Made by a program: the position numbers and the translations under genes
IMG/VR virus record: IMGVR_UViG_3300028593_000003
Reading direction: 5' to 3' (one strand)
DNA: 64,000 nt
Source: a virus
Taxonomy: Duplodnaviria; Caudoviricetes
Shown: one piece after another, positions 10,974 through 27,973 of the stretch
Layout of the letters: every line of letters starts with the position of its first letter
Numbering within the stretch: the first letter of the stretch is position 1
The notes under the pieces: generated by a model
The model's database searches: none
The model's input: the letters and a program-made list of their open reading frames with translations, nothing else
What the model was told of the DNA's origin: nothing

Positions 10974-13900
10974 TCATAGTATTTTATCAATACTTTCTAT
11001 AATAACATCGGGAGCAATGGTTCTCGAACATTCATATTTTTTATTTCTTGGGCACCACAACCAATTTCCCCTGTCATATGGATGCTTTATATCATTATAA
11101 CAACCTCTGCAAACACCTTCAGGCGGAACAATTCTTATGCAATCCTTCATTTCAGACCATGGCTCTGAGAAACCAGAAATAAGTATAGTTGGAATATTCA
11201 ATGCCCATGAAAGCCAAGATAGACCTGACCCCACACCAATGAAAAGTTTCGAATTGTAGATATTATTGATTGTTTGTTGAATTGTTGAATTTGTCCTGTC
11301 AACAATACCGGATAATTGAGTTGTCTCCTTGCTCACAACCATTACATCATATCCCTTTTCTTTTATATAATTGATGATTATTTGCCAGCCCAGAGGATAA
11401 TGCCATCTTTTACAGAGTAGGGTTGAGTGCTCAGAAATTGTAACATATGGCTTTTTCACATTTTTCTTCTCTGCTGTTATCTTCGGTTTTATCTCTTCAT
11501 AATCAAGACCAAGATAGTCCGTAGCAACTTTCTGTAATGGAACCAATCTCCAATTGTTTTTGTTTGAATGATAGTCATTATCCCTACATCCCACGGTATA
11601 GAAAATATTGGGTTTCAATGCGCCCGGCTCCACAAATCTCAAATCGGGATATTCCTTCTCAAATATTTTATTCCAGAATGTTGACACATAAAAGTCCTTA
11701 CACCCATGTTTTTCTTTGAAAACTTTAGCATATGGAAACCAAGCTAATGTATCGCCCAGTGCTTTACTGTCAAAATATACAAGAACTTTATCATTTACAA
11801 AATCCGGCTCAAATATTTTATAAGGAGCTTCATTCTTATCAATTAAAATGTTCCAATTTACATAATATCTTGCATTTGGAGCGACCCAATGATTTGGCCT
11901 TATTGTGCCTCTATGTATAATCAGATCGACATCTTTATCAGTAAATGTTACTCTATATTCAGCATCACTTTTGCCGATAATTTCAACTTTTACCCCATCA
12001 ATATATGTTACCTTTATCAAATCTTCCTGCTCTATCCATCCCTTATCATCAAACGAGTTCCATTTCCTACATACTAATCTTCCGTCTTTGAACTTGAAAT
12101 TAGTCTTTGTATAATCCTTACCTGCTTCTCTATCCACTATTTTATGTGACCATTTTCTTGTTTTGGTGTTCACTAAAAATTCAACAACTCGGCCGTCTAT
12201 AGTTTCAGATAAAAATGTTCTCTCATCCGGTTCTTTATCTCCCTGATCGACCAGATTTCTATTCTTGATGATTTTATATTTCATGTCATCTTTGGTGAAT
12301 AGAAAAATATCATCTGGCTTCGAATGTGCCTCAAAATAATTATATAACCAATTTTCGAAAATGAGATCAATTCTGATTTTCGTTTTTTCTGACGCTTCTG
12401 CAATCAATTTATTATAGTCAGACCACGATGAAATATCCATCAATCTCTCATTCATCCACTTAATGTCAAATGAAAAAAGATTAGCGATTATTCCATATGT
12501 AGGATCAATGCCCGGAACCTTCCGTGGATTTTGTTCTTCATCATATATAAAACCAACCATTTTATATTTTTCTAATTTTTTTCTGGCTTCTACAAGATAA
12601 AGATCGAGGTCTATATCAATATCAAACTCAATAAAATGCGCTATATCATATTGAGAGAGAAGCCTGACAGCATTTACCATAGAGGAATAACAAGCAGCTC
12701 CATGATATTTTGTTTCGTACTGTGAAACAATTTTCACTTCCTCGTTCTGAAACCAATAATTCAGGTTCCACCCATCACTCATAATATTGTTAGCATCATA
12801 AATGTAATAGTTTACCATCTTCTGTATTTCTACAGAAATTGGATAATGAGATACAAGAAGAACGGGAAATCCCCTTTCCTGTATTTCCTCTATCATTCCT
12901 TTTGTGAGTTCCTCTTTCTCGGGCAAGTCGGGGTAAGTGTCAATGATGAAAATTTCTTTTGGTTCTTTTTTTGTTGCCTCCATAAGGATGCATTGCTGGT
13001 CATGCGACCAGACATTTCTCATTTTTATATCTCTAAAGCCGGCTTCTCTCAATAAAGTTTCCAACCTATGTTTCGTAAAGCCGATTTTATGTTGTTCACC
13101 CTCGTTTGTCTGTAACCCAAAAATTGTATCAAGATGAAAATCCCATTTTTCATCTTCTGGTTTATCAAGCCAAGTTTTCACGACCCATTCAAAATCAGGA
13201 ACTTCAAATACGAGTTTGCCATTCATATCCAATACACGATAACATTCTTTGAGAACAGCAGGCACTTCATATCTATTGAAATGCTCCAATAAATGTGACG
13301 AATAAACTTCCTCAAATGTATTATCGTTATAGGGGATATCCTGAGCGTCAAAATTTATATCAGCTTTTTTATCAAATTTATCTGCATTGATATAACCTAT
13401 TCTAATTCTATCGCCACAACCTAAATTTAATTTTTTTGTTTCAACTTTTCTGCCTTTTGTTTTACCGGAACCAAACTCTTCTAATATAACAAGTGCCTTA
13501 TCAACTGCCTTTTCCCAAGTAAAATCTCTTCGTATTATTTCAGATTGTTTGAGTGCTTTTTCTTTACAGATTGTGTAATTTTCGTATACCTCTCTCATCA
13601 CCCGCTTCAGATGATCAAAATCTGGTTCTGCCCATTCGCCCGGTGTGTCCTTCTGCATAAAAACATTTTCGGGGGCTCTCAATTCTTTTATGTTTACCAG
13701 ATTGGAAGCATCTTTACAGAACTCAAGTTGTGCGCCCCAATTTGAAGCAATTGTAGGAATGCCTGTAGCGATACCCTGAATGAGAGGGAGATTCCATCCC
13801 TCAGACCTTGCACAAGTCACAAGACAATGACAGGAACGAAGATAAGAAAGATAAAGATCATCACTTTCTGGAAGCCCTGTCACGATTTTTATTCGTGGAT

Positions 13901-15131
13901 CAATAAGTTTATGTCCTTTCAATCTTTCTTGCGTCGAGCCGTATTCGTCCTGTTTGAAAGGATTTTCAACTTGACATATAATATCCACCGGCTCATCATT
14001 CTTGAACTCTTCAATGAAGGCCCTCAAAATTTCTGTGGTTGCTTTCCTGTAATCCCATCGGCCGCAAAGAAGAAATTTGAACCTATCATCCTTCAATACT
14101 TTTATTGGTGGATCGCCGGGGCAGAAAAGATTTCCATTCACTCCCTCTGGAACCACAAATATCTTGTCTGCTGGATATCCCTGTTCTATCGTACACCATC
14201 TCTGCCAATGTGTCGGAACCCACAACATATCATATTCAAGTAACTTGTGAAAAAACTGTTCCGGTTGTCTCGTACTCTCCCATACATTATACGCAACTTT
14301 TGGCCCATCATAGTTCTCGTAGAAGTAATAATGATTTGTTTCCATCAAGATGATGTTTATGGGCCTGTGATAATACGCTCTATTGAGAGGCAACCCTACT
14401 TTATATGGTGGTTGGTTCCAAGTCTGCTCAATAATCATATTCTTCTGTTTATCAGAGAGATGTGACAAGTCGGGAGTATAGGCAAAATTCCTTATTCTCA
14501 CCGTAAGATGATCTGCTAATCTTGTAAAAAATTCTCTTGCATGGGATGCATATCCTGTATGTGGAACAAAACTACAATGACCAAGAACAAGGTCAAATGG
14601 AAAGGGTTTATCAAGTTTTACTAATGGTATATCTTTCATCTTTTCACCTTTTACACCATAAAATAATATCCCCTTTTCGGGGTCATCTTCTACAATAATA
14701 TTTTCCATATCGGAAAAAATCTCTTTGAAATTATCTCCGGTAAATCTCCAATAATCATCAGGCCAATCGTGAATGGGGAAACCGGGCGCTCTTGTAGTAA
14801 TAATAAGTTTGCCGCCTATACGGAGAACAGACTTCATATTCTCTATGGCGGCCTTCCAATTTTGAATATGTTCAAGAACCTCTGTGCAAATTACGATATC
14901 AAATCTGTTCTTGCCATACTTTTTTACAAGATGTTGAACATCACATATTTCATCAACACCTTTACCCTCGACTATATCCGTTCCAATATATCTCTTTGGT
15001 TTATATCTCTCTACATAATACCTTGCAGAACCATTGAAATCGAGAGAACCAACTTCAAGAATGGATTTACCGGATATATCTTCTGGCCTCAAACATTTTT
15101 CTACAAAAAACAGGCAGGCTGAATTGCACAT
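10974..15131 (-). CDS. Multidomain SAM-methyltransferase / GT4 glycosyltransferase / methyltransferase / TibC(Aah)-like O-heptosyltransferase
   Basis: ILEVGS...CTEVLEH; GT-B (GRWDYRK, RSEGWNLP); LNLGCG...SHLLEH; C-terminal SKALGDTLAWFPY, FIGVGSGLSWLSWA, ISGFS, CRGC...WCPR...EC iron-finger pattern. Confidence 0.8.
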   Translation of the reverse strand: MCNSACLFFVEKCLRPEDISGKSILEVGSLDFNGSARYYVERYKPKRYIGTDIVEGKGVDEICDVQHLVKKYGKNRFDIVICTEVLEHIQNWKAAIENMKSVLRIGGKLIITTRAPGFPIHDWPDDYWRFTGDNFKEIFSDMENIIVEDDPEKGILFYGVKGEKMKDIPLVKLDKPFPFDLVLGHCSFVPHTGYASHAREFFTRLADHLTVRIRNFAYTPDLSHLSDKQKNMIIEQTWNQPPYKVGLPLNRAYYHRPINIILMETNHYYFYENYDGPKVAYNVWESTRQPEQFFHKLLEYDMLWVPTHWQRWCTIEQGYPADKIFVVPEGVNGNLFCPGDPPIKVLKDDRFKFLLCGRWDYRKATTEILRAFIEEFKNDEPVDIICQVENPFKQDEYGSTQERLKGHKLIDPRIKIVTGLPESDDLYLSYLRSCHCLVTCARSEGWNLPLIQGIATGIPTIASNWGAQLEFCKDASNLVNIKELRAPENVFMQKDTPGEWAEPDFDHLKRVMREVYENYTICKEKALKQSEIIRRDFTWEKAVDKALVILEEFGSGKTKGRKVETKKLNLGCGDRIRIGYINADKFDKKADINFDAQDIPYNDNTFEEVYSSHLLEHFNRYEVPAVLKECYRVLDMNGKLVFEVPDFEWVVKTWLDKPEDEKWDFHLDTIFGLQTNEGEQHKIGFTKHRLETLLREAGFRDIKMRNVWSHDQQCILMEATKKEPKEIFIIDTYPDLPEKEELTKGMIEEIQERGFPVLLVSHYPISVEIQKMVNYYIYDANNIMSDGWNLNYWFQNEEVKIVSQYETKYHGAACYSSMVNAVRLLSQYDIAHFIEFDIDIDLDLYLVEARKKLEKYKMVGFIYDEEQNPRKVPGIDPTYGIIANLFSFDIKWMNERLMDISSWSDYNKLIAEASEKTKIRIDLIFENWLYNYFEAHSKPDDIFLFTKDDMKYKIIKNRNLVDQGDKEPDERTFLSETIDGRVVEFLVNTKTRKWSHKIVDREAGKDYTKTNFKFKDGRLVCRKWNSFDDKGWIEQEDLIKVTYIDGVKVEIIGKSDAEYRVTFTDKDVDLIIHRGTIRPNHWVAPNARYYVNWNILIDKNEAPYKIFEPDFVNDKVLVYFDSKALGDTLAWFPYAKVFKEKHGCKDFYVSTFWNKIFEKEYPDLRFVEPGALKPNIFYTVGCRDNDYHSNKNNWRLVPLQKVATDYLGLDYEEIKPKITAEKKNVKKPYVTISEHSTLLCKRWHYPLGWQIIINYIKEKGYDVMVVSKETTQLSGIVDRTNSTIQQTINNIYNSKLFIGVGSGLSWLSWALNIPTILISGFSEPWSEMKDCIRIVPPEGVCRGCYNDIKHPYDRGNWLWCPRNKKYECSRTIAPDVIIESIDKIL

Positions 15132-15545
15132 TTATAATAATAGTCCGATAAGTATTCCTACCCCAATCAATCCAGCATATTCCATTATCTGATACATCAT
15201 ATTGGGTTTGGATTGTTTCAATTGTTTCTCGTAGGCTTCTCCCTGTGATTTGATGGTGTCCTGTAAAACTTCAACTGTTTTCTTTGATGCTTCCAATTGT
15301 TGTTGTTGAAGATCAACGATCTCCCTCATCAGTTTTACTTGTTTATACAGTTCAGCGTTCTGATCCTTGAGTACCTGAAGCTCTTCCTTCATAATATTGG
15401 CTCTCTCAAGTTCGACAACTATCTTTGCTGCATTTTCCTCTGATAAACAGACTTCTTCTGCAAAAGAAACATTAGCGAACAGGAGGATACCCAAGATCAG
15501 TAAGCCTGCGCTTAGTTTCCGCAACACTTGTGGGTGTCTGAACAT
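15132..15545 (-). CDS. Secreted coiled-coil protein with C-terminal TM (spanin-like)
   Basis: Signal-peptide-like LLILGILLFANVSFA, coiled coil, hydrophobic C-terminus; overlaps the upstream gene in the lysis cassette. Confidence 0.5.
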   Translation of the reverse strand: MFRHPQVLRKLSAGLLILGILLFANVSFAEEVCLSEENAAKIVVELERANIMKEELQVLKDQNAELYKQVKLMREIVDLQQQQLEASKKTVEVLQDTIKSQGEAYEKQLKQSKPNMMYQIMEYAGLIGVGILIGLLL

Positions 15546-15828
15546 TTTGATACTTTGCCTCCAATTCTTTTACTTTAGTACGAAGCTTCTTCGCCTCTGC
15601 TTGTGATTTGTTCAATTGAATCCTGTAGCTCTCAATCTGAGCTTCCTTATTCTTCAATTCCTCATCGTATTGATCTTTTATTTCCTGTGACCTATCAGTA
15701 AAGATTCCCTGAAGAAGGCCGGGAACCGCTCCCCAATGTTTATAAGCATAGGCCCCACCAGTAATCAATCCAATCACAGCTACAAAGATTATCAATACCG
15801 TTTTGAACTTTACTATAAAATTCCACAT
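15472..15828 (-). CDS. i-spanin-like protein
   Basis: N-terminal TM followed by a coiled coil; directly after the endolysin. Confidence 0.55.
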   Translation of the reverse strand: MWNFIVKFKTVLIIFVAVIGLITGGAYAYKHWGAVPGLLQGIFTDRSQEIKDQYDEELKNKEAQIESYRIQLNKSQAEAKKLRTKVKELEAKYQNVQTPTSVAETKRRLTDLGYPPVR

Positions 15829-15837
15829 AAAAACCTC

Positions 15838-16437
15838 TTACCAAAATTTCATTCGGTCAATATTCTGACCTCTGTATTTTTTCCCGTAATTATAAACTTT
15901 TATGGAGTAATCGTAATTCACTTCACAAAAACTCAGATATCCCCACTTGAACTGGACACCTCCTCTTTTACAGGCGTTTCTCATATCCACCCATTGTTCG
16001 TTTCCGGCTCTCTTATATTCCTTCTTGAGATTTCCCCATCCACCATTATACGCCTGATATGTCAACCACAATTTCTTTCCTTCACCAAAGTTCTGACGAT
16101 GAAGGTATGACATATAAAATGCCTGCATCTTTATCGCATGTTCAGGATTGTACGGGTCAAGGTCATATTCACCCATCAATTTCCTGACATACTTTGTCGT
16201 TGCTGGCATAAACTGTGCGACACCCTGACCCGCATCAAATGCTGTCACCTTTGTCCTGCAACAACTTTCCTGTCTCAATTGTCCAAGTCCATACCACCAC
16301 GGATATTGCAAACCAAAATACCTGATGTGTTGTGCTCTCACATCCGGTACAAAATCATCGCACCTGTCAAGTGACAATGAATTAGCTGGAAGTAGTATCA
16401 GTACCAGTATTATCAGTAATTTTAAGAGATTTTGCAT
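15838..16437 (-). CDS. Endolysin, lytic transglycosylase (SLT) with N-terminal signal
   Basis: RQES catalytic motif, GQGVAQFMP, AYNGGWG; hydrophobic N-terminus. Confidence 0.9.
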   Translation of the reverse strand: MQNLLKLLIILVLILLPANSLSLDRCDDFVPDVRAQHIRYFGLQYPWWYGLGQLRQESCCRTKVTAFDAGQGVAQFMPATTKYVRKLMGEYDLDPYNPEHAIKMQAFYMSYLHRQNFGEGKKLWLTYQAYNGGWGNLKKEYKRAGNEQWVDMRNACKRGGVQFKWGYLSFCEVNYDYSIKVYNYGKKYRGQNIDRMKFW

Positions 16438-16651
16438 CTACAACATACTCCACGGTTTTCTTTACCGACCATATTCCAAAAGAGGCGGAAAAGAACCATA
16501 TCATAATATGCTGGAGAGCAAGGATACCCTGTCTGATTTCCTTGTCTATTATACCACATATTATGAGTATAAGGAAGGTAAATGTTATCAAAGCATTGAT
16601 AAATCCACCTCTTATGGTCTTTTCCTTTTTGTCGAGAATATAGTCTATCAT
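16382..16651 (-). CDS. Two-TM membrane protein (holin/antiholin-like)
   Basis: TGATG-coupled start MIDYILDKKEK; two hydrophobic segments. Confidence 0.55.
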   Translation of the reverse strand: MIDYILDKKEKTIRGGFINALITFTFLILIICGIIDKEIRQGILALQHIMIWFFSASFGIWSVKKTVEYVVDAKSLKITDNTGTDTTSS

Positions 16652-16989
16652 CAGCCGCCTCTTGCCCATGCGAAGATTATGATCAAATACCAACCGATAA
16701 TCATCAATTTTTTATATGGGTCTGTCTCCTCGCTAAAGTCGATATATTTCCAGAGTATCTTTCTTGTAATGTGTGCGTGAAGAATACCGGCTGAAATGAA
16801 CATCAACTTGCCGAGGAAAATGCTGATAAGGCCGATTTTCGGGTTATCCGAAATGAGTTCAGATGATGGAATAAAATAAAGAAGAAGAATAATAGAAAGA
16901 AGAGCCAGAGTATCAAGACCCGTTCTTTTCAGATTAAACCAGAAATTACTCCAAAAACTGAAACCATTACCATTTTCACCATTCGCCAT
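16651..16989 (-). CDS. Holin-like protein (3 TM)
   Basis: Three hydrophobic helices; RBS GGAGGTG; first gene of the lysis cassette. Confidence 0.65.
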   Translation of the reverse strand: MANGENGNGFSFWSNFWFNLKRTGLDTLALLSIILLLYFIPSSELISDNPKIGLISIFLGKLMFISAGILHAHITRKILWKYIDFSEETDPYKKLMIIGWYLIIIFAWARGG

Positions 16990-17009
16990 ATTTTCACCTC
17001 CTTACATAT

Positions 17010-18248
17010 TTATTTTATTACTTTGTTCTTCATATAGACCAACGGGATTACCTGTGGGGGTTGCCCCGTATAATCTGTAAACTCAATTTTCAATTTCGGG
17101 GCATATGCGTATTTACCCACATAATATGGACTGTCTCCAGCAAGTGATGTCACTTGTAAAGTAGTATTCGGAACCGATACATAAGTTTCAAAGCCCATCA
17201 ACATAATTGCGTTTCCCTGTCTGTAGCCAAGTTTATTGATAGCTTCTTGGAGTGGTTCCGTAAAACCGGATGCCATCAAATACCAAGTCCAGGCAACCAT
17301 ATCTGTAGTCCACGCAATATTGTGATACTTGGTTGTCTTGACGAGGGCGGCCCAGGCATCTTCATCTCCGTTAGGCGGAGAAATTGCATTATTGATGTAA
17401 TTTGCATATATATCGTAACTTACATCGAGGGTCTGTGATACTGATGTACTGAATTGATATAGATTAGCTGATGTAATTATAGACCTTCTCGGAATATCAC
17501 AGTTCGGAAATCTCAATCCCCAATCCCAAAAAAAGGGTTGCCCAAAATAGGTGCTTGCCCCCCAAGGAAGAAAACCATAGCTTGAAGGTGGAACCTCAAG
17601 ATCATCAACGGCCGGGTTTGTCGGACATCTCCACGCCGACATAATATCGGTTGTTGATTGTGCCTGACCATACCATTTGTTCTCGACTGTAAATGTAATA
17701 ACCAAGACCGGGGTTTTCCCCGCTCCACCAGCGGTTCCTTGTATTGTGCGATAAACTCCACTATCAGAACCATTGTCCTGAATACCAATCAGTATAAAAT
17801 CACCTTCAGACCATCCCGCACCGGAAATCTTTTCCTGTACAAGTGATGTTATAGAAGGAGTATTTCTTTTTGCAGTAAGGCTCGGGCCCGAGCCGGCAAA
17901 AGCCTCCACATTGTTCCACGCGACTGTAGTGTCGCTCCAGACTATAGTATCATATTCAACGTGATTTGTGGGGGCCGTAGATGTATATCTCGCTACTTTT
18001 ATAATTGCATTACAGGTATGTACTGTAACTGAATTGCCTCCCAAAAGTGTTATATACGCACTGTTTATTGTGGCTCCCTGTGGAATGTAAATGGGCCCAA
18101 ATCTTATGAAGGCATCGTAAGTATACAAACCGCCTGGCCAGCCAACGGATGCCTGGCCCGCAGTAAATGAGTTTAAACTCCACGCATATCCTATATTGGC
18201 ATTTTTATAATCAATACCAAAACTCAATGTAGAGGTAATAGACGCCAT
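17010..18248 (-). CDS. Virion appendage protein with two beta-sandwich (DNRLRE-like) domains
   Basis: Two copies of RF...IP....I.SA ... (V/L)QE ... P.L.I.F. Confidence 0.6.
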   Translation of the reverse strand: MASITSTLSFGIDYKNANIGYAWSLNSFTAGQASVGWPGGLYTYDAFIRFGPIYIPQGATINSAYITLLGGNSVTVHTCNAIIKVARYTSTAPTNHVEYDTIVWSDTTVAWNNVEAFAGSGPSLTAKRNTPSITSLVQEKISGAGWSEGDFILIGIQDNGSDSGVYRTIQGTAGGAGKTPVLVITFTVENKWYGQAQSTTDIMSAWRCPTNPAVDDLEVPPSSYGFLPWGASTYFGQPFFWDWGLRFPNCDIPRRSIITSANLYQFSTSVSQTLDVSYDIYANYINNAISPPNGDEDAWAALVKTTKYHNIAWTTDMVAWTWYLMASGFTEPLQEAINKLGYRQGNAIMLMGFETYVSVPNTTLQVTSLAGDSPYYVGKYAYAPKLKIEFTDYTGQPPQVIPLVYMKNKVIK

Positions 18249-18257
18249 AAAAACCTC

Positions 18258-19982
18258 TTATGCCTTGGTGAATGTGAGAGCAACGGACAATCCATATGCA
18301 GGAGTTGGGTCGTGAACAGTATCCACATCAATGAATATCAGGTCACCCGTGGCAACATCATCATTACTTGCATTTATTACACCATCTCTTGCATAGTATT
18401 CACCGGAACCCACCGTGACAGGAGTTGACAACATATCAACCTCGGAGCCAGACCTTCTTCTCCTTATCTGTATATCCATATCGGGCTCAAATGTTCCCGT
18501 GCCCGGTGTAGCAACAGATGCAATTACATCCGTCAATTCATATCCGTTCAGGTCGAGAGGAATAACAAATCCTGTATATCCAGCACCGGATGCACATTGA
18601 GTATCAGAATCGAAAATAGGAACGGTGGTAAGAGCCAGAGACTCACCTGAAGTACCGGATGAACCGGATGTTCCTGCTTGTCCAGATGAACCAGATGAAC
18701 CGGAGGAACCCGATGAGCCTGAAGAACCTGATGAGCCGGAAGTTCCAGACGAGCCCGATGTGCCCGATGTTCCATATGCGGTATACGAAATCACAATTCT
18801 CTCATCATCAGAGAATGTTCCATTCCCTGAGATGTATGTAACTTCAATCCCCTTTGTATCTTCGGCTGTGGATGAATACTGTATGGTTAATTTTGGTGCA
18901 TCACCTGCGCCGTAACCATCATATGATCTTGGAACATAGTGATGAAATGCTGCTAAAGCAGGCCCATTATTATAAAACATCAATTGTAAAGCTTGGCCAG
19001 ATGCCCAGCCCGGCCTATTCACAATCTCTTGAATAATATTTGATATATCAATTGTATTATAAGTCTGGCCCGTTGTCCAAGTGCCGGGGGATGACCAATC
19101 ACCATATTCTGTTGTCTGTACCAGAGCGTGAAATTGTGTGTAGTTTGTTGGAGCCACAGCATTGTCAACATCGTTTCCATAAATGAGTATTGGTTGGCTA
19201 TTATTATTATCTTGATATGCTTTGAATGTAACATATGCGGCCAAAATAGATGACCCATTAGGAATAGTAACATTCTGCCATCTTACATTCGTATTGGCTG
19301 CTCCACAATGATAACCAAATCCAAGCCAATTCGCGGAGGCATAATATGTAGATATCAATTCATCCGTATGACCATCATCCGCTCCCGTGGCCACTTGAAA
19401 TGTCGGTGTTCCATCAGTAACTTCCCCATCTACATCGTAGACAGCGAATGTTGACGAATCATATTCAGAAAATACTCTTACTCTTCCGGGCACATTGTCT
19501 ATAATATCCTGTATCCAATCTTCAACATCCACACTATCATTGTTTGTCTTGTTTATATAAATTGCTGTAGACGCTGATGGTTCGGCAGTATTAAATCTGA
19601 GATAACCTGAATCAGTATCTCCACCGGATGTTTCTGTATCAAAATAATATGGTTGGCTATCTCCACCAAATAGACCTGATGAGCCACTTGTTCCCGATGA
19701 GCCACTTGTTCCCGAAGAACCGGATATTCCAGAACTTCCTGATGTTCCAGAGCCACTCGTTCCACTTGAACCGGAAGTTCCACTTGAACCGGAAGTTCCA
19801 CTTCCACCTCCACCAGTTCCCACTTCAAGCCAGTCAGCATCCGTTCCATAATAGAGTTTATCATCGGCCTCATTATAGACAAGTCTACCGTAATCATCGT
19901 CCGTCCACGCCGGAAGAGTTATCAACTTTTCAAGAATAAGTTTTCCCTGAAAATCTTTACCGTAACTTTTTGTTCTTGCCAT
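18258..19982 (-). CDS. Fibre/appendage protein with Gly-(Thr/Ser)-Ser repeats
   Basis: Shared N-module LPAW...GRLVYN; two GTS/GSS blocks. Confidence 0.75.
   Translation of the reverse strand: MARTKSYGKDFQGKLILEKLITLPAWTDDDYGRLVYNEADDKLYYGTDADWLEVGTGGGGSGTSGSSGTSGSSGTSGSGTSGSSGISGSSGTSGSSGTSGSSGLFGGDSQPYYFDTETSGGDTDSGYLRFNTAEPSASTAIYINKTNNDSVDVEDWIQDIIDNVPGRVRVFSEYDSSTFAVYDVDGEVTDGTPTFQVATGADDGHTDELISTYYASANWLGFGYHCGAANTNVRWQNVTIPNGSSILAAYVTFKAYQDNNNSQPILIYGNDVDNAVAPTNYTQFHALVQTTEYGDWSSPGTWTTGQTYNTIDISNIIQEIVNRPGWASGQALQLMFYNNGPALAAFHHYVPRSYDGYGAGDAPKLTIQYSSTAEDTKGIEVTYISGNGTFSDDERIVISYTAYGTSGTSGSSGTSGSSGSSGSSGSSGSSGSSGQAGTSGSSGTSGESLALTTVPIFDSDTQCASGAGYTGFVIPLDLNGYELTDVIASVATPGTGTFEPDMDIQIRRRRSGSEVDMLSTPVTVGSGEYYARDGVINASNDDVATGDLIFIDVDTVHDPTPAYGLSVALTFTKA
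18645..18773 (-). repeat. (G-T/S-S)n coding repeat, 43 aa
   Basis: GTSGTSGSSGTSGSSGSS... Confidence 0.95.
19674..19799 (-). repeat. (G-T/S-S)n coding repeat
   Basis: GTSGSSGTSGSSGTS... Confidence 0.95.
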
Positions 19983-19996
19983 TTATGTTTCCTCTA

Positions 19997-20590: not shown

Positions 20591-20776
20591 TTATTTTTTC
20601 TTTGGCCTTTTATCTGACATTTCTTCCAGACGCGTCTTGAACTTTTCAAGGCCTTCTTTCTGCTTGAGAAGCATAGCTTTCTCATCGTCTTTGGCGGTAA
20701 GGAGCTTCTCCTCCACCATCTTCAATCTCTTCTCTATCATCTGTGCTCTCATATCAAATATTCTGTCAATTCCCAT
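20591..20776 (-). CDS. Small coiled-coil hypothetical protein
   Basis: RBS GGAGG; CATAAATA upstream at 20807-20814. Confidence 0.6.
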   Translation of the reverse strand: MGIDRIFDMRAQMIEKRLKMVEEKLLTAKDDEKAMLLKQKEGLEKFKTRLEEMSDKRPKKK

Positions 20777-20809
20777 TTTGTACCTCCAAAATATGTTACT
20801 CTATAGTAT

Positions 20810-22276
20810 TTATGTAATATTTGAAAATCTTGTGATACTTGAAGCTTGTGCTCCGGTTGAAAAATCCACCTTTAGCTTCGCAAAATCTGTGTATCTGTAA
20901 TAAACATCCGCATCACCCGTGTCTACTGCGATTGTGACGGAGTTGAACCAAATCCTACCAAGGCCCAGAACATTCGGTCTTGTCCAAAAAGTAACTGTGG
21001 CAGAGGAAGAACCATAACTTGTATCGGATGTTCCAAAAGCCTCCAGAGCATACATCAATGACGAAATATACCCGAAATTGAACAAACTCTGGCCTGAACC
21101 ATTGTCATTGTTTATAATCCCCACTCCTGCCAAATTTATTCCGTATGTGTTTCTGTGGGAAATCGCCTTATCTCCCCTTGTTTTCCAATCCGTTTTGGTT
21201 TCATATCCACCTGAACCGGAAAATGCCGTGGTGTTTATCGGAAAACTTTCTAGCAGATACCAATCTGTAGTAATCAATGTAGAGGCAGACAGGCCGGCGT
21301 TCCAAGTTGAATTTGGATAGCTCGGATCATTTTCAGTTCCAATAATGTGATCCATATTCCATGCATTGACAAAACAGATATTGGAATATGTTCTTCCGTG
21401 AACATAATTTACTTTCTGGTTGAAATTGTCTCTCGGTATTCCGTGATCATATCCGCATTCATCCATAAAGATACCGTGAACCTGCATATCGTTCCATTGA
21501 TCTGTCTTTGTCTGGAAATTCGCGTATGTCTGGTTACAAGTTACATATCCAAATATTTTTGTCTGTGGGTTCAGAACTTTTATCCTGTTTATAATTGTAT
21601 GTGCATTTTCGTGGTCACCGTGGGATGGGTCTTGAATACCGTCACCAAAGATAATCAAATTATATCTCGCCATATCCTGTGCAACTTTCTCATTATCCCA
21701 GCTGTTTATTGCGTAATTGAATGAATTTGTCCACCCATAATAAATCAACAAATTCAGCGGCGCTTGGTATCCATATGACTTTATCTCTCTCCTGTGCCAT
21801 CCCGTGTCACCGTGTATTACTTCCAGATTGAGAGTTCTTCCGAGATGCTCGACTTCCCTTCCACTCTCACCAAGTAATGGCTGAAATCCTTCTTCATATA
21901 ATGGGTCGCCAGGAGCATTGTAAAACTCCTTCAACATCGTGAGAATGTCCATAAAGAGATTGGTAGCTTTTTTTCCCGTTGGTGTATCAGTAACAATCTC
22001 CGGTGTAAACTCTATAACTTCAGAACCATCTATCAAGAAAGCATTGTCATCAAATCTTGTCCTGAAGTATGCTTCTCCCTCAAGAGCGTTGGTATAGAAC
22101 TTGGAACCGTCGCCTACCTGTAGATAACCATTCCTGATGGCTGTCAATGTATTATCGCTATTGATGAATGTATCCTGCCTACCTTCCGTGTTGAACTCCT
22201 GCCCGGAACTTATTGTTTTCCCCACATCAGATAACAAAATAGAATTGTCAGTTACATTCTTCAAAATCTTTATCAT
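20810..22276 (-). CDS. Virion-region protein with glycoside-hydrolase-like TIM barrel
   Basis: LLIYYGW, KIFGYV, GIFMDECGYD, FVNAWN, YLLESF resemble GH114/GH135-type barrels. Confidence 0.55.
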   Translation of the reverse strand: MIKILKNVTDNSILLSDVGKTISSGQEFNTEGRQDTFINSDNTLTAIRNGYLQVGDGSKFYTNALEGEAYFRTRFDDNAFLIDGSEVIEFTPEIVTDTPTGKKATNLFMDILTMLKEFYNAPGDPLYEEGFQPLLGESGREVEHLGRTLNLEVIHGDTGWHRREIKSYGYQAPLNLLIYYGWTNSFNYAINSWDNEKVAQDMARYNLIIFGDGIQDPSHGDHENAHTIINRIKVLNPQTKIFGYVTCNQTYANFQTKTDQWNDMQVHGIFMDECGYDHGIPRDNFNQKVNYVHGRTYSNICFVNAWNMDHIIGTENDPSYPNSTWNAGLSASTLITTDWYLLESFPINTTAFSGSGGYETKTDWKTRGDKAISHRNTYGINLAGVGIINNDNGSGQSLFNFGYISSLMYALEAFGTSDTSYGSSSATVTFWTRPNVLGLGRIWFNSVTIAVDTGDADVYYRYTDFAKLKVDFSTGAQASSITRFSNIT

Positions 22277-22960
22277 TTATTGCCTCCAAGCAACTTCCAA
22301 AACGACGATGGGATTGGACACCGCACCATCATCACCCTCACAATGAACTTTCAACTGGTCACCGGCTGTCAAATTGATATTGCTACTCATATTTTCATAT
22401 ACGAGGCTGCTCAACGAAAAACTGGACAGTTCCACATCTCCACTCTGGATTTTGAAACCTTTTGAATTATTTCCACCGCTTGCCCTACAGGAAACTCCGG
22501 TTATAACAGCATTTTTGGGCATCTGATATGCCGTAGTTGAACCATAGACTGTCATAATTTTCAGATATTCATTATCAGCATCACCATCAAAAGCAAAAAT
22601 ATATGTCATCCTATATAATGTTCTCCATTTGCTTCGATCATCATCCCAAATATATCTCAAATTATCATTTGTATTCAGCCAGGTCATCGTCTTATCCGAT
22701 GGTGGCGTGTCCTCTTCAAAAATAATCTCAATCTTCGTATTGAATACTGGGATTTCGTCATTATTTGATACAATGTCATCCAATTTTGTTTTATCTCCGG
22801 CTGATAACTCAACATCCCAAGTAATCTTCAACTCTTGAGAAGCTTCACTCCAATTGCAATACTGGATATTTTTATTGGACATATCGGAACTTGCAACATC
22901 ATTATGAATACCGTCCATATATGGCTTCACACTTATATCTGAATATGTATATGTAAACAT
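22277..22960 (-). CDS. Putative virion structural protein
   Basis: 227-aa ORF in the fibre cluster. Confidence 0.55.
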   Translation of the reverse strand: MFTYTYSDISVKPYMDGIHNDVASSDMSNKNIQYCNWSEASQELKITWDVELSAGDKTKLDDIVSNNDEIPVFNTKIEIIFEEDTPPSDKTMTWLNTNDNLRYIWDDDRSKWRTLYRMTYIFAFDGDADNEYLKIMTVYGSTTAYQMPKNAVITGVSCRASGGNNSKGFKIQSGDVELSSFSLSSLVYENMSSNINLTAGDQLKVHCEGDDGAVSNPIVVLEVAWRQ

Positions 22961-23787
22961 TATGATCTCCTCATTATGAATATTCTTGCTCGCCTAATCA
23001 TCGCCGTACCAACACCACCAACTCTTGCATATTTTATATTGAACGCGTATGATGAAGAAGCCACAAGGGCGTTGTTCTTGAAACTTGAATATACTCTATA
23101 TTCATTGGCAGACGATGGTGAATAATATGATACATTGATTTCAGTACCATCTCTGTCAAATTCAAGCACAGTTGATTTAGCCGCATTGGTATTTGCCACC
23201 TCGGCCGAGAAGAAAATAATGTAATTTCCTGAAGCCGTGGGTGTATAATTGAGTGTCAATTTTGTTTGTAATGCTGTATCAGTTGTTGTGCTTTCAGTTT
23301 CATCTTCTGCATAATCATTTGTGCTATATCCACTCGTTCCTGATGAACCAGAAGTGCCAGAAGAACCGCTTGTTCCACTTGAACCGCTCGTACCTGATGA
23401 GCCAGAACTACCCGATGTTCCACTCGAACCGCTGGTTCCTGATGATCCACTACTACCTGAAGTTCCACTTGAACCTGAAGTGCCACTTGAGCCCGATGTT
23501 CCAGAGCTTCCTGATGTTCCACTACTTCCCGATGTTCCAGAGGAACCAGAGGTGCCAGAACTGCCAGATGTTCCAGACCCGGCACCCGATGTGCCAGATG
23601 TTCCGGACGAACCCGATGTTCCACCGGCTCCTGTCGCAGCAATCCAACCAGTATCACCACCAACATAAAGAATATTGTTGGGATCATCCCACACAAGCCT
23701 ACCTTCATCTTCCGGTGTCCAAGCCGGCATTACACTCACTTTCTGTATTGTTACTTTGCCTTTTCCTGTAAATCCGTATGTTCTCAT
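22960..23787 (-). CDS. Fibre/appendage protein with long G-(T/S)-S repeat
   Basis: Shared N-module MPAW...GRLVWD; 98-aa repeat; small C-terminal beta domain. Confidence 0.75.
   Translation of the reverse strand: MRTYGFTGKGKVTIQKVSVMPAWTPEDEGRLVWDDPNNILYVGGDTGWIAATGAGGTSGSSGTSGTSGAGSGTSGSSGTSGSSGTSGSSGTSGSSGTSGSSGTSGSSGTSGSSGSSGTSGSSGTSGSSGSSGTSGSSGTSGSSGTSGSSGTSGYSTNDYAEDETESTTTDTALQTKLTLNYTPTASGNYIIFFSAEVANTNAAKSTVLEFDRDGTEINVSYYSPSSANEYRVYSSFKNNALVASSSYAFNIKYARVGGVGTAMIRRARIFIMRRS
23329..23622 (-). repeat. (GTSGSS)n coding repeat, 98 aa
   Basis: Direct translation. Confidence 0.95.
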
Positions 23788-23797
23788 TCTTTACCTA

Positions 23798-26700
23798 TCA
23801 AAGTTTGATAATATAATTCATCGTTATATATGGTTGCATATTGTTATGTGCCACACCACCACCCGTATAGCCTGTATTTGTGGGATAAGCCGCATATTGA
23901 TTTACACCGCCACCTATTATTGAATTAAAGCCAGACCATAATGGTTGATTATATGTATGGGTATGACTTGGCATTTCAGCGGTAGAAAGGGTATGATTTT
24001 CTTCTCCACCACTTCCCGCGATAAGATCGGCCGAGGCGGCAGTTACTCTATTTGCAGAACTTCCACCCATATTGTCTTTACCAAGTGGCACTCTGCCTCT
24101 CAAGTCAGGAAGCGGCATCCTCTTGTTTGCAGCAAAATCTGTGGCCGCAGTTACACCCCTTGTCGTTGGAGACCCCGCACTATCTTGAATTACAAGTTCT
24201 GTATTTGTAGTTGAGTTCCAGAGAAGTTCAAACAATGTCTGTGTATCTGCATTTGCTCTTCCAGTTGCGCCAGAAGAAACACTACCGATTGTCTTACCAT
24301 CAGAGAGAAGCCATCCAGTTGGCGCCACCGTTCCGATATATGGGAACAGAACGCCTGTCGGTGTCAAATCACCTGAGACACCACTTGTTCCGGATGTTCC
24401 AGAACTACCATATGTTCCGATTGTTCCAACTCCACCAACGACAGAGCAGATACCGGAAACCGGAGTAGAAAATGTTATCTCGATATTGTTCTCGTCAATG
24501 AACTCTATACTCTGTGGCTCAATATAAAAATCATCACTCGTGCATTGGACATTGACATATTTTACACCGAGATTGTGGGTAATATCCCATGCGGTTACCG
24601 GAGAGGAGAATGTATATATCAGTTCCCCAACAACCAGACCACCACCGGAAGAAATAAATGCGTGACCCGATACTGCCTCAGAGAATGTTATCGTAAGATT
24701 ATTCTCATCATCAAATTTGATACTGTCAGGAAGTATAGTATACGCATCACCATCGGTAACTTCAACAACACAGTATTGACAATTCAAAATATGGTTGATA
24801 GACCAAGTTGATGCCGGTACTGTTTGGGTGTGAAGATATCCTCTACCACTTGTACCGGATGTTCCTGCTGTTCCACTCGTTCCACTTGTTCCTGTTTGCC
24901 CTCTATTACCGATACCGAGAACAACTTCATCCTCATCGTTCAATGTTCCGTGACCAACAAGATATGCCACATTGAATTTGTAATATCCGGCAGCCGATGT
25001 TGGTGCACTCAAAAGTAAATAGTCGTGAAAAATCTCCACACTATTCTGGTTCATTATTCTGACAGCATTGCTATCGACAAGACTTGCAATCCAAGCCTCG
25101 ACATCCACGGCAAATCTATTCAGAGTGTCAACATAAATGTATGTTGCGAGTGACGGGTCTGAATTGTTCAATTTGATATGCCCGCTTGGTGGGTCACTAT
25201 CTGTAGTGTTATCATCAAACCAGTACAAATGTGCATTTGCACCAAGACCTGCGAGACCGGATGTTCCGGAAGTTCCCGCATCACCCGTTGGAACAAAACC
25301 AATCTGAAGGTCATCATCTTCCCTGAATGCACCGGAAACTGCCGGTGAACTTGAGGCAATCAGACCAACGTGAAGTTTCCTGTATTGTGGGTCAATATCA
25401 GTCGTTCCGTTTATTTCAAAGTATACATAATCACTTTCATCGTGATCTCTCCAAATCTTGACATAACCCTTTGACCACAATGATGTACTGTCATCCATCA
25501 AGTCAATCCAAGAAGTCAAATCCTGACCATATCTGTCCATAAGGTCGATATAAATCCTTGTGACTGATGAAAATGTTGTGCTGTTAAACTTCAGATGGCC
25601 GATATTCGGGTCACCGTCTGAAGTATCGTCCTCAAATCTGTATGGTATACCCCAGGCAGCCGAGAAACCACTTGTTCCACTTGAACCGGATGTTCCACTT
25701 TCTCCGCTTGAGCCCGATGTTCCCGAGCTTCCCGATGTTCCATCAGCCCCATCAAATCCGGAAGTGCCGGAAGTTCCGTCTATACCGGAAGTTCCTGCTG
25801 TTCCCGATGTGCCGGAAGTGCCATCAATACCCGATGTGCCCGATGTTCCGGATGTTGCTGATGTTCCTGATGTTCCCGCCGTTCCACTTGAACCGGACGA
25901 ACCGGATGTTCCTGATGTTCCCGCCGTTCCACTTGAACCGGAGCTTCCACTTGAACCGGATGAACCGGAAATACCAGAGGTTCCGTCTATACCAGAGGTT
26001 CCAGAACTTCCTGATGTTCCCCAACCTGATGTACCGGAAGAACCCGAGCTTCCCGATGAACCACTACTGCCGGAAGAGCCACTTGAACCGGAACTACCAC
26101 TTGAACCGGAACTACCACTCGTTCCCGCCGTTCCAGAAGTTCCAGAAGTTCCTGAAGTTCCTGAAGTACCGGAACTTCCGCTCATTCCCGATGTACCAGA
26201 GGTTCCACTTGAACCACTTGATCCACTTGTTCCACTCGTACCCGATGTTCCAGAGGTTCCATCATCTCCGGTTGGTGTCATCGTGAGAACGATTTTCTCA
26301 CCGGAGCTGAAAAGAGCACCGCTGAAACCAACACAGGATACCCAAAATCTCTTGTACCCTGAGCGGGCTGTCAATCCAGTTATGTTGTAAAGAACAAACT
26401 TCGTTGGATTGGCTTCTGAAAAAATCTTGATAAGTGAATTGTTGTTTGATAGTGTAAAAATATCAAGCCAATCTTCAAGATTTGCACCATTATCATCCCA
26501 AAAACTTACATTGATACGGGATACAGATGTATAAGCCGTATTATTGAAGAGGAGTTTACCGGATGTTGGGTCTGCATCGGATGTTGACGAATTGAATGAG
26601 TAAAGGGCGCTTGCTCCACCGAACAAACCATCAGCACCGGAAGTACCTGATGAGCCCGATGTTCCCGCAGAACCGGCAAGGCCCGATGTTCCTGAAGTTC

Positions 26701-27973
26701 CACTTGAACCGCTTGAACCGGACGAACCTGATGTTCCTGAGCTTCCAGATGTTCCACTTGTTCCGGCTGTTCCCGATGTTCCTGAAGTGCCGGAAGTTCC
26801 TACTGCACCACCACCACTTACGAAAGTCGCGCTTCCCGAAACTGGAATATCGAATGTCAATATTACATTGTCATCATCGACATAGAGAACATCTCCGGGC
26901 TCAATACCATACCCATCGCCGTTCATTACTGCTACGGCAACTGGTTGTACTCCAAGGCCGTGATAGATAGACCATCCAGTAGACGGTACTGATTGTGTAT
27001 AAGTAAACGCACCACCGATAGCAGATACACCCGATGTTCCTGTTCCCGCAATAATTCTTGCGTGACCAGAAACTTCTTCAGAGAATGTAATCCAGAGATT
27101 GTTACTGTCCTCAAAAAGTATACCGGATGGGATGATATACATATCATCTTCATCAGCCACTTCGACAATTACATACTGCTCTCCGAGGTTATGTGTGACA
27201 TACCACGCTGAGGATGGTACTGATTGTGTATGAAGATATCCGCCCGGGAATGTAGTTTCGCCGGAAGTTCCTGATGAGCCGGATGTTCCATCTATACCTG
27301 ATGTACCGGAACTGCCACTTGTACCGGATGAACCGGATGTTCCATCACCTGATGTACCGGAGCTTCCACTTGTACCGGAGCCCGCAACAATCTTGGCTTG
27401 GCCAGCAATATCTGATGGAAATGTAATTACAAGATTGTTACTGTCAATATACTGAATTTCAGAAGGAATAATAAAAAGGTCGCTATCGTCTGAAACCTCG
27501 ACAACAACATATTTATCACCGAGATTGTGTGTTACAGACCAGGCAGAAGAAGCGACAGATTGAGTAAAGAGATACCCGCCGGGGTATGTTGTTTCGCCGG
27601 AAGTACCGGAACTGCCCGAGGTGCCAGCTGGGCCTGTAAGACCCATAGCACCGGATGTTCCTGATGTTCCTGATGTTCCTGATGACCCATCAATACCCCG
27701 CCTGAAAATATCAATATTCTCATAACGGGTTTCACCAACGACAATATCGAATTTCTGTGTGGTGACATAATCACCATCATCTACATAGAAATTGAAAAGG
27801 CCGTAAGCATCGGATTCCAGTTGTGGAGCAATTTGAATTGCCGTTCCACCAGTTTGCTCGAGATAGACCTTGGCCGCTGTCGTGGTTCCGGCCAAGTATA
27901 CGGAAACATCAACTCCTTCCAATACATTTCCGTAACTATCTCTCGACCTACCAATAAAATGATATCTTGCCAT
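23798..27973 (-). CDS. Large modular tail fibre (1391 aa) with G-(T/S)-S linkers and tail-collar domain
   Basis: Five W.(V/I).H.L modules; three D.DP..G modules; C-terminal collar APTGWLLSDG...PDLRGR...GGEENHTL...HNNMQPY. Confidence 0.85.
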   Translation of the reverse strand: MARYHFIGRSRDSYGNVLEGVDVSVYLAGTTTAAKVYLEQTGGTAIQIAPQLESDAYGLFNFYVDDGDYVTTQKFDIVVGETRYENIDIFRRGIDGSSGTSGTSGTSGAMGLTGPAGTSGSSGTSGETTYPGGYLFTQSVASSAWSVTHNLGDKYVVVEVSDDSDLFIIPSEIQYIDSNNLVITFPSDIAGQAKIVAGSGTSGSSGTSGDGTSGSSGTSGSSGTSGIDGTSGSSGTSGETTFPGGYLHTQSVPSSAWYVTHNLGEQYVIVEVADEDDMYIIPSGILFEDSNNLWITFSEEVSGHARIIAGTGTSGVSAIGGAFTYTQSVPSTGWSIYHGLGVQPVAVAVMNGDGYGIEPGDVLYVDDDNVILTFDIPVSGSATFVSGGGAVGTSGTSGTSGTAGTSGTSGSSGTSGSSGSSGSSGTSGTSGLAGSAGTSGSSGTSGADGLFGGASALYSFNSSTSDADPTSGKLLFNNTAYTSVSRINVSFWDDNGANLEDWLDIFTLSNNNSLIKIFSEANPTKFVLYNITGLTARSGYKRFWVSCVGFSGALFSSGEKIVLTMTPTGDDGTSGTSGTSGTSGSSGSSGTSGTSGMSGSSGTSGTSGTSGTSGTAGTSGSSGSSGSSGSSGSSGSSGSSGSSGSSGTSGWGTSGSSGTSGIDGTSGISGSSGSSGSSGSSGTAGTSGTSGSSGSSGTAGTSGTSATSGTSGTSGIDGTSGTSGTAGTSGIDGTSGTSGFDGADGTSGSSGTSGSSGESGTSGSSGTSGFSAAWGIPYRFEDDTSDGDPNIGHLKFNSTTFSSVTRIYIDLMDRYGQDLTSWIDLMDDSTSLWSKGYVKIWRDHDESDYVYFEINGTTDIDPQYRKLHVGLIASSSPAVSGAFREDDDLQIGFVPTGDAGTSGTSGLAGLGANAHLYWFDDNTTDSDPPSGHIKLNNSDPSLATYIYVDTLNRFAVDVEAWIASLVDSNAVRIMNQNSVEIFHDYLLLSAPTSAAGYYKFNVAYLVGHGTLNDEDEVVLGIGNRGQTGTSGTSGTAGTSGTSGRGYLHTQTVPASTWSINHILNCQYCVVEVTDGDAYTILPDSIKFDDENNLTITFSEAVSGHAFISSGGGLVVGELIYTFSSPVTAWDITHNLGVKYVNVQCTSDDFYIEPQSIEFIDENNIEITFSTPVSGICSVVGGVGTIGTYGSSGTSGTSGVSGDLTPTGVLFPYIGTVAPTGWLLSDGKTIGSVSSGATGRANADTQTLFELLWNSTTNTELVIQDSAGSPTTRGVTAATDFAANKRMPLPDLRGRVPLGKDNMGGSSANRVTAASADLIAGSGGEENHTLSTAEMPSHTHTYNQPLWSGFNSIIGGGVNQYAAYPTNTGYTGGGVAHNNMQPYITMNYIIKL
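25667..26260 (-). repeat. (G-T/S-S)n coding repeat, 198 aa
   Basis: Longest block; synonymous codons are diversified. Confidence 0.95.

Follow-up and report, generated by a model that had tools for sequence, protein, structure and literature searches.

A phage-borne multidomain enzyme with a TibC/Aah-type domain and collagen-like Gly-(Thr/Ser)-Ser fibres as its candidate acceptors

The stretch of viral DNA analysed here, 64,000 nucleotides from IMG/VR record IMGVR_UViG_3300028593_000003 (hereafter the window), consists of densely packed phage genes that lie mostly on the minus strand. In its structural region it encodes a 1385-amino-acid (aa) enzyme of five domains, P0001, and three fibre or fibre-like proteins, P0002, P0003 and P0004, which contain long runs of Gly-(Thr/Ser)-Ser triplets (Table 1). 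Comparison with related loci in viruses and bacteria suggests that P0001 may glycosylate the triplets of the three fibre proteins. P0001 is composed, in this order, of a methyltransferase, a glycosyltransferase of family GT4, a second methyltransferase, a GT-A-fold domain and a TibC/Aah-type domain. The first-pass annotation, made from the sequence alone, had described the same layout with one section left unassigned; Pfam and NCBIfam confirm it, and the unassigned section is predicted to adopt the GT-A fold.

The C-terminal domain of P0001 is, judged by its sequence, a true member of the BAHT family. The model TIGR04414 (hepto_Aah_TibC, entitled 'autotransporter strand-loop-strand O-heptosyltransferase') matches it end to end over residues 1039-1384 with 232.3 bits, against a curated NCBIfam cut-off of 200, and the crystal structures of TibC, 4rap and 4rb4, match at E 6e-43. 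Since the model of lipopolysaccharide (LPS) heptosyltransferase I, TIGR02193, reaches 17.7 bits only, this search of the last ~350 aa against hidden Markov models, which the earlier annotation had called for, refutes the alternative that the domain belongs with the GT9 enzymes of LPS rather than with TibC; the Pfam GT9 match is likewise weak (21.7 bits, residues 1217-1323). In TibC, Asp-110 is the catalytic base, Thr-226 and Lys-230 bind the beta-phosphate, Trp-305 contacts O4 of the heptose, and Cys-339, Cys-342, Cys-358 and Cys-370 bind iron in a 1Fe-0S iron finger (PMC4358343). All of these residues are conserved in P0001: the base as D1127, within LGDTLAWFPY (LGDLLGWFPY in TibC), the phosphate ligands as T1237 and K1241, the tryptophan as W1306, and the cysteines as C1341, C1344, C1360 and C1368. 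The CxxC...C...C pattern noticed at first reading is thus real, and iron binding by it is predicted from the alignment with TibC. No variation is seen at the Asp, the Trp and the four Cys across 92 phage homologues, nor at the Asp and the four Cys in 3 plasmid homologues. Two further positions of TibC are known to matter: Arg-286, which contacts adenine N1, is highly conserved in BAHTs and, when mutated to Ala, abolishes or largely diminishes activity, its contact being called weak and coming from a 3.9 Å structure; and the position of Pro-300/Ser-294, which sets the heptose stereoisomer (PMC4358343). In P0001, Arg-286 is not conserved and is replaced by Thr-1287, and Pro-300 corresponds to Gly-1301.

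Pfam finds no match over residues ~716-1040 of P0001, a region that recurs in 39 of 120 listed homologues. An AlphaFold2 model computed from 26 aligned sequences (mean predicted local distance difference test score, pLDDT, 90.2) places a GT-A-fold core at P0001 ~723-964. Foldseek retrieves GT-A matches for this model with E down to 1.5e-5, and VIA-align superposes its residues 24-265 on many GT-A transferases and nucleotidyltransferases (Z 12-14, root-mean-square deviation 2.9-4.1 Å over 156-200 residues), glycosyltransferases and sugar nucleotidyltransferases being tied in Z. One of these matches is GlyE, the pneumococcal serine-rich repeat protein (SRRP) enzyme. The motif E835-x-D837 is invariant in the 26 sequences, as are columns of H, N, Y, E and W, and domain 4 is probably, as far as the modelled fold can tell, a third sugar-handling module. 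The GT4 domain is common to 75 of the 120 listed homologues and the second methyltransferase to 49. Multidomain relatives of P0001 in metagenomes number 257, and the relatives carry GT4, GT2, GT-A-fold, FkbM or class-I methyltransferase and sugar epimerase domains. With three domains of sugar-nucleotide type and two methyltransferases, and with relatives that swap in GT2, FkbM or epimerase domains, P0001 fits a glycan-building enzyme. Its methyltransferases weakly match UbiG, Mtf2 and MftM-like models, which are of the small-molecule or sugar O-methyltransferase type and not DNA methylase families, and the protein has no signal peptide. We consider it probable that P0001 is a cytoplasmic, late-expressed enzyme of protein glycosylation. 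Its closest relative, P0006 (1754 aa, on the contig of L003), is 369 aa longer and includes an intein-type domain, PF14890.

The fibre genes lie upstream of the enzyme gene. In P0002, collagen-like runs alternate with small beta-rich globular repeats, and the C-terminus forms a tip resembling gp10_C and tail-collar domains (weak Gp10_C match). When runs of at least 5 triplets are counted, P0002, P0003 and P0004 together contain 588 Gly-X-Y residues, of which 313 are Ser or Thr and 1 is Pro; Thr or Ser mostly occupies X, and Ser nearly always Y. All three match many tail-fibre PHROGs, and all three exceed the cut-off of 27.2 bits of Pfam Collagen (PF01391), with 136.1, 46.7 and 35.6 bits (E 3e-40, 3e-12 and 8e-9), respectively. 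The several hundred repeat residues in three fibres that the first-pass annotation reported are therefore present, and its description of them as Ser/Thr repeats gives way to collagen-type Gly-X-Y. The Ser codons of the repeats are mixed, TCN and AGY, which indicates that the repeat is kept at the level of the protein and is not a simple DNA repeat. Since the repeats are nearly free of proline, it is doubtful that a triple helix formed by them would be stable without modification.

Table 1. Genes and domains of the putative fibre-glycosylation system and context genes, with positions in the window; aa, amino acids; ORF, open reading frame; SAM, S-adenosylmethionine.
Feature	Position	Strand	Basis or content
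P0001, five-domain enzyme, 1385 aa	10974..15131	(-)	ORF and translation; Pfam and NCBIfam domains
P0001 domain 1 (residues 1-175), class-I SAM methyltransferase	14607..15131	(-)	Methyltransf_23/11/12/31, residues 16-123, E down to 1.6e-18
P0001 domain 2 (residues ~176-560), GT4 (GT-B fold)	13452..14606	(-)	Glycos_transf_1, residues 345-477, 26.9 bits (cut-off 26.4)
P0001 domain 3 (residues ~561-715), second SAM methyltransferase	12987..13451	(-)	Methyltransf_11/25, residues 592-642
P0001 domain 4 (residues ~716-965), predicted GT-A-fold nucleotide-sugar domain	12237..12986	(-)	predicted structure; invariant E835-x-D837
P0001 domain 5 (residues 1039-1385), TibC/Aah-type (BAHT)	10977..12017	(-)	TIGR04414; alignment with TibC 4rap
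P0002, fibre, 1391 aa	23798..27973	(-)	nine Gly-(T/S)-S collagen-like runs, 393 residues; Pfam Collagen in 7 stretches
P0003, fibre-like, 275 aa	22960..23787	(-)	Gly-(T/S)-S triplets (102 residues) followed by a C-terminal domain of ~120 aa
P0004, fibre-like, 574 aa	18258..19982	(-)	three Gly-(T/S)-S runs, 93 residues
T4 gp20-type portal (context gene)	8049..9725	(-)	phrog_213, E 2e-101
SLT-type lytic transglycosylase (endolysin or virion lysin)	15838..16437	(-)	phrog_669 endolysin, E 4.5e-22; Pfam SLT, E 1.5e-10
Possible nucleotide-sugar supply cluster	48369..54348	(-)	weak family matches

The association between the enzyme and the repeats extends to other viruses. With an alignment of the TibC-like domain as query, at least 595 IMG/VR stretches with relatives were found, and 80 loci were kept. 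An open reading frame (ORF) was classed as S/T-rich Gly-X-Y if it had at least 10 triplets in Gly-X-Y runs with at least 60% Ser/Thr at X and Y. Such an ORF lies no more than 10 kb from the TibC-like gene at 39 of 84 loci and, among the loci of at least 15 kb, at 29 of 41. The repeat ORFs share the strand of the enzyme in 42 of 43 cases, and nine are situated within 300 bp of it, some merely 4 bp downstream. The same pairing exists in the Microcystis phage Mel-JY01, which is the nearest cultured relative, in the huge phage LR756501, and in L003, the closest relative of the window, where the fibre-then-enzyme order of P0004 and P0001 is kept at a distance of 3.2 kb. This is corroborated by the reverse test, in which viral records were chosen by DNA pattern alone, (G-[S/T-type]-[S/T-type])x8, with controls chosen by (G-P-X)x6: a TibC-like gene is present in 12 of the 44 S/T-repeat records (10 of them above the family cut-off) and in 0 of the 48 Gly-Pro-X records (Fisher p = 5.8e-5). 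The co-occurrence of repeat proteins and TibC-like genes across phage genomes, put forward as a check by the first-pass annotation, is thus borne out. Gp20-type portals are found in 21 of 37 carrier records, at 88% down to 27% identity, and are absent from three of the six near-complete ones, so that the pairing is spread over deep T4-like diversity and over other lineages, all of them unevenly sampled; the contigs that bear it span 5-548 kb.

Two side observations concern these viral records. Mel-JY01 (PP395634) encodes a homologue of the enzyme with 38.8% identity over residues 179-1385. In this phage, a 1016-codon open frame (L001:2-3049, plus strand) with 606 Gly-(T/S)-S residues adjoins the TibC-like gene, which is annotated as 'methyltransferase FkbM'; the deposited annotation places two hypothetical genes of the opposite strand over most of this frame, and the fibre gene is possibly mis-annotated. 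In three related phage records (G094, G096 and G102), the match to the gp20-type portal falls into two parts, situated within open frames of 809-914 aa or in two separate frames, and insertions, for example of inteins, are therefore suggested.

The pairing is also found on cellular chromosomes. Among species-representative genomes, 80 loci encode relatives, and S/T-rich Gly-X-Y ORFs adjoin 28 of them; these are 28 of the 45 loci at which the domain is at least 33% identical to that of the window, as against 0 of the 35 in the 27-34% group. When 162 distinct domains are placed in a tree (FastTree, LG+gamma, midpoint root), two clades separate on a branch of 0.58 with support 1.0. In this sample, which is biased because loci were taken by phage-like sequence patterns, the classical clade comprises 37 members, all cellular, none with a nearby S/T Gly-X-Y ORF and all with Arg-286 kept (37/37), and the clade of the window comprises 125 members (80 phage, 45 cellular), with a nearby repeat ORF at 67 and Arg-286 kept in 39. 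Three plasmid genes belong to the classical clade, and two of them lie directly upstream of AIDA-type autotransporters. When only cellular loci of at least 15 kb are considered, the repeat ORF is present at 20 of 25 in the clade of the window, as against none of the 17 classical ones (p = 1e-7). The domain sequences therefore place P0001 in a sister clade of the classical autotransporter heptosyltransferases. TibC has a beta-hairpin thumb and forms a ring-shaped dodecamer; the stretch that bears the thumb measures ~25 residues in P0001, 35-36 in classical members and 24-38 among the members of the clade of the window. What adjoins the enzyme gene in methanotrophs and Burkholderiales encodes a small protein in which a signal peptide or lipobox is followed at once by a (GTS)n tract; the order, enzyme next to substrate, resembles that of AIDA-type autotransporters, with a different class of acceptor. 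By their appearance, such small secreted (GTS)n or (GSS)n proteins are what this enzyme clade acts on in cells. Listed examples from methanotrophs, Arenicellales and Burkholderiales (L329:8938-9780, L340:11211-11912, L349:11199-11909 and L352:11160-12053, all from Methylobacter and Methylomicrobium, L400:8722-9729 and three ORFs of L330) have a mature N-terminus of (GTS)n or (GSS)n with up to ~40 triplets, some ending in poly-Asp.

We propose that P0002, P0003 and P0004 are the acceptor of P0001, a reading of the comparative evidence to which we assign a probability of roughly two in three. P0001 would act on fibre monomers in the cytoplasm, before or during their trimerisation and assembly. 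Its TibC-like domain would attach the first sugar to Ser/Thr hydroxyls of the Gly-(Thr/Ser)-Ser triplets, elongation of the glycan would fall to the GT4 and GT-A-fold domains, and the two SAM methyltransferases, going by the domain content, would O-methylate or cap its hydroxyls. The product would be a glycan-coated, proline-free, collagen-like fibre in which the sugar substitutes for hydroxyproline in stabilising the triple helix and covers the surface. By analogy, stabilisation together with surface coating appears to be the most economical purpose of such a glycan, because the glycosylated Thr of Riftia collagen and the O-glycan of BclA, both considered below, offer precedents. We infer in this way which proteins are the acceptor, in which order the domains act, that the glycan is methylated and what the phage gains. 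A role as a shield, in stability or in adhesion, as the first-pass annotation suggested, is likewise a conjecture from the domain content. A broader and more tentative hypothesis, which we would not back at even odds, is that a previously unrecognised sister clade of BAHT enzymes is dedicated to Gly-(Thr/Ser)-Ser repeats and, in phages, constitutes a second, mechanistically distinct virion glycosylation, whose O-glycans, possibly non-heptose and methylated, would replace hydroxyproline and coat the tail fibres.

Several observations weigh against the proposal. The evidence on the acceptor is all comparative. Of the long viral loci with a TibC-like gene, 12 of 41 have no repeat ORF within 10 kb, and a TibC-like gene is missing from three of the six near-complete viral records in which S/T Gly-X-Y repeats occur. 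Many positive loci share one layout, with the fibre ORF ~4.3 kb upstream, so that independent events are fewer than loci. In the window itself no repeat gene adjoins the enzyme gene, the nearest, that of P0004, being 3.1 kb off across the lysis genes. Within the enzyme, Arg-286 is replaced by Thr, the thumb stretch is ~10 residues shorter, and any of the three transferase domains could initiate. TibC, moreover, recognises a folded beta-helix strand-loop-strand motif, a shape very unlike that of a collagen triplet.

A variant of the proposal, rather than an exclusive alternative to it, is that the fibres are the acceptor and the chemistry differs: the donor would not be heptose, and/or the GT4 or GT-A domain would initiate and the TibC-like domain extend. 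That the donor is not heptose is an appreciable possibility, somewhat short of an even chance. It is favoured by position 286, which is V, T or I in 86 of the 125 members of the clade of the window (Thr-1287 in P0001) and Arg in 37 of 37 classical members; since this Arg contacts adenine and is lost in most of the clade, another nucleotide donor is hinted at, and together with the shortened thumb its replacement means that both the donor and the oligomeric state may differ from those of TibC. The Gly found in P0001 at the position that sets the stereoisomer points in the same direction, as does the absence of GmhA (TIGR00441) from all 37 TibC-bearing viral records, six of which are at least 90% complete. 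To our knowledge, cyanobacterial LPS generally lacks heptose, and the closest cultured carrier infects Microcystis. As to initiation, GT4 enzymes initiate the O-glycosylation of serine-rich repeat adhesins in Gram-positive bacteria, and GlyE, the pneumococcal enzyme, is among the fold matches of domain 4. On the other hand, the residues that hold phosphate and heptose (Thr-226, Lys-230, Trp-305 and Asp-110) are all conserved, which favours a heptose donor, many cellular carriers are Proteobacteria that make ADP-heptose, the Arg-286 contact is the weak one of the 3.9 Å structure, and about a third of the clade of the window keeps the Arg. We regard heptose as a possible transferred sugar, with rather less than an even chance. 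The increment of +192 Da for which the first-pass annotation suggested looking is just one possibility, because no heptose-pathway gene travels with the clade in phages.

Three candidates for the supply of the donor were considered and rejected. The cluster at 48369-54348 encodes a cupin resembling phosphomannose isomerase, a 524-aa fusion of a sugar-1-phosphate nucleotidyltransferase with an APH-type kinase, an unknown 313-aa ORF, a HAD-IIIA-like phosphatase, two DUF7796 proteins and two SAM methyltransferases; as a conserved supply it fails, its fusion being found in 1 of 37 other TibC-bearing viral records. A phage-encoded heptose pathway was discarded on the GmhA count; in the window, which is part of a genome and in which an absence is uninformative, a GmhB-like HAD protein reaches a weak 22.9 bits (cut-off 149.6) and an HddC-like protein a weak 16.7 (cut-off 300). 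The 'cytidylyltransferase-like' protein of Mel-JY01 was dismissed as an HldE, since it gives weak CTP_transf_like and NMN-adenylyltransferase matches only.

It is unlikely, in our estimation, that the enzyme acts elsewhere, either on host surface proteins, LPS or S-layer, thereby blocking superinfection or changing adsorption, or on other virion proteins such as those of capsid or tail tube, with its proximity to the fibres reflecting a variable, cargo-rich region. Such a target would suit the immediate neighbours of the enzyme gene, which are lysis-type genes and the portal and not a repeat gene, as well as the long loci lacking a nearby repeat ORF, and reported phage virion glycosylation does target the C-termini of capsid and tail-tube subunits (Freeman et al, 2023, as described in PMC12619734). 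The link is, however, specific to S/T-rich Gly-X-Y, as the controls of Gly-Pro-X type demonstrate; the repeat ORFs almost always share the strand of the enzyme; and the pairing recurs on cellular chromosomes, which have no phage fibre region and on which the enzyme gene adjoins that of a small secreted (GTS)n protein. Nor was an autotransporter, an AIDA domain or another beta-helix repeat protein found among the ORFs of the window that were scanned, which upholds the earlier remark that no autotransporter substrate is present. A role of the enzyme in modifying phage DNA, or in the synthesis of a free polysaccharide or small molecule, with none on protein, is very improbable: the best-known task of phage glycosyltransferases is the glucosylation of DNA (PMC12619734) and P0001 has two methyltransferase domains, but these are not of DNA methylase families, the characterised members of the family of the C-terminal domain glycosylate Ser of proteins, and the position of the gene in the structural, late block and its pairing with repeat proteins would be left unexplained.

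The window is part of a distant T4-like myovirus, given its gp20-type portal, T4-type prohead protease, family-B DNA polymerase, and UvsW-type and DnaB-type helicases. The best cultured or phage matches of the portal are cyanomyovirus portals at ~31% identity, and megablast against the phage collection found no near-identical genome. The enzyme-gene stretch is present, wholly or largely, in runs labelled soil metagenome and wastewater metagenome, the majority of which may be sources of this DNA; the habitat is likely wastewater or activated sludge. The start codon of the enzyme, an ATG at 15131, abuts the stop of the ORF at 15132..15545, and the upstream genes encode a transmembrane/coiled-coil protein and then the SLT lytic transglycosylase. 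Downstream come the genes of a 265-aa protein, which resembles tail proteins only weakly (phrog_5795, E 8e-8), and of the portal. The gapless junction described in the first-pass annotation is hence real, and its labels, 'lysis genes' on one side and 'directly before a fibre gene' on the other, are plausible and weakly supported, the match to phrog_5795 being weak. Contigs from activated-sludge RNA sequencing (four runs of one study) are 99-100% identical to parts of the enzyme and fibre genes. They cover the region in part and allow neither strand nor level to be read, bins of the enzyme gene that they leave uncovered being uninformative; their presence in RNA libraries is a weak hint of expression, and DNA carry-over is possible. 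Within window:14313-27636 these contigs differ almost solely by clustered plus-strand G-to-A changes (9 within 14313-14377), which could be strain variation, a library artefact or deamination.

Other genes of the window deserve a brief mention. An IS607-type pair on the minus strand (1450-3418), near head genes such as the prohead protease (4038-4673), consists of a 453-aa TnpB/OrfB_IS605 protein with a Cas12f-like TNB domain that overlaps a 247-aa serine recombinase with a MerR helix-turn-helix. The family-B DNA polymerase (38226-41487, minus strand) is encoded in two ORFs, for the N-terminal exonuclease/polymerase part (39730-41487) and the C-terminal part (38226-39146), with a GIY-YIG/NUMOD3 homing-endonuclease ORF (39085-39708) between them; a second GIY-YIG ORF (46340-46966) precedes the UvsW-type helicase. 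Amid minus-strand genes, a plus-strand island (34396-37618) encodes a 324-aa PAS-domain protein and a 454-aa fusion of a RimK-type ATP-grasp ligase with a putative Zn-protease domain, and a ClpP-type protease (37615-38223, minus strand) adjoins it. Further minus-strand genes specify a 472-aa nucleotidyltransferase of the CCA-adding or poly(A) polymerase type, which has an HD domain, and a 186-aa protein with a C39-like cysteine peptidase domain, both within 55594-57572, and, at 61429-62852, an adjoining JAB/MPN peptidase (276 aa) and ThiF/E1-like protein (201 aa), which suggest a ubiquitin-like conjugation/deconjugation pair.

If the proposal is true, hundreds of uncultured T4-like and jumbo phages would glycosylate their host-recognition fibres by means of a different enzyme family, with a bearing on phage host range, environmental stability and recognition by immune or defence systems. 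It would explain how a stable triple helix can be formed by the proline-free Gly-Thr/Ser-Ser 'collagen' that is very common in phage fibres. The BAHT family is so far known only for modifying enterobacterial adhesins in connection with virulence. A large environmental clade would be added to it, with a new class of acceptor and perhaps a new donor; the clade of the window is widespread in aquatic and wastewater phages, as the number of IMG/VR stretches attests, and in bacteria such as methanotrophs. An enzyme in one polypeptide with a simple repeat as acceptor could also be a tool for making defined O-glycoproteins.

Our literature search found no publication that links TibC- or BAHT-type enzymes to phages, phage fibres or collagen-like repeats, and none that mentions Mel-JY01. 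Four known systems invite comparison. Serine-rich repeat adhesins of Gram-positive bacteria are glycosylated by the GT4 initiator GtfA/GtfB and by GT-A-fold extenders (GlyE, PDB 5gvw). There too, GT4 and GT-A-fold enzymes work together on a surface fibre, whose long Ser/Thr-rich repeats they furnish with short glycans; the likeness to P0001 is one of analogy only, as those enzymes are separate proteins with neither a BAHT-type domain nor methyltransferases, and the acceptor is not Gly-X-Y. Closer to the putative acceptor are BclA of Bacillus anthracis, which reportedly carries O-glycans on Gly-X-Thr repeats, and the cuticle collagen of the vent worm Riftia, in which galactosylated Thr is said to take over the stabilising role of hydroxyproline. 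Both have triplets of a Gly-X-Thr type comparable to those of the phage and are O-glycosylated; unlike the phage repeats, in which a single Pro occurs and Ser dominates Y, they contain proline, and their transferases are unrelated or not known to be of BAHT type. The reference list of PMC11923368 includes a paper on each (Daubenspeck 2004 for BclA and Mann 1996 for Riftia). In the literature found, phage virion glycosylation is described for mycobacteriophages only (Freeman et al, 2023, cited in PMC12619734 and PMC12801897). As in our proposal, the phage enzymes of that system, as it is described in PMC12619734, act on structural proteins of the phage itself; the acceptors are the C-termini of capsid and tail-tube subunits, where here they would be collagen-like fibres, the hosts are Actinobacteria, unlike those of T4-like phages, and that description mentions no TibC-like domain. 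The nearest precedent for the enzyme is that of TibC with TibA and Aah with AIDA-I in Escherichia coli (PDB 4RAP/4RB4; PMC4358343), with which P0001 shares a homologous catalytic domain, including the N-terminal beta-barrel part (E 6e-43), a cytoplasmic location and the pairing with a highly repetitive, Ser-rich acceptor encoded nearby, putative in our case. It differs in its partner, a collagen-type Gly-(T/S)-S repeat and not an AIDA-type beta-helix autotransporter; in its domain, which belongs to a sister clade and has Thr for Arg-286 and a thumb shorter by ~10 residues; and in its setting, fused behind four other enzyme domains and carried by a phage. Protein O-glycosylation by an enzyme of the BAHT family is thus known, and it is the class of acceptor and the biological setting that, from the sequences compared here, appear to be new.

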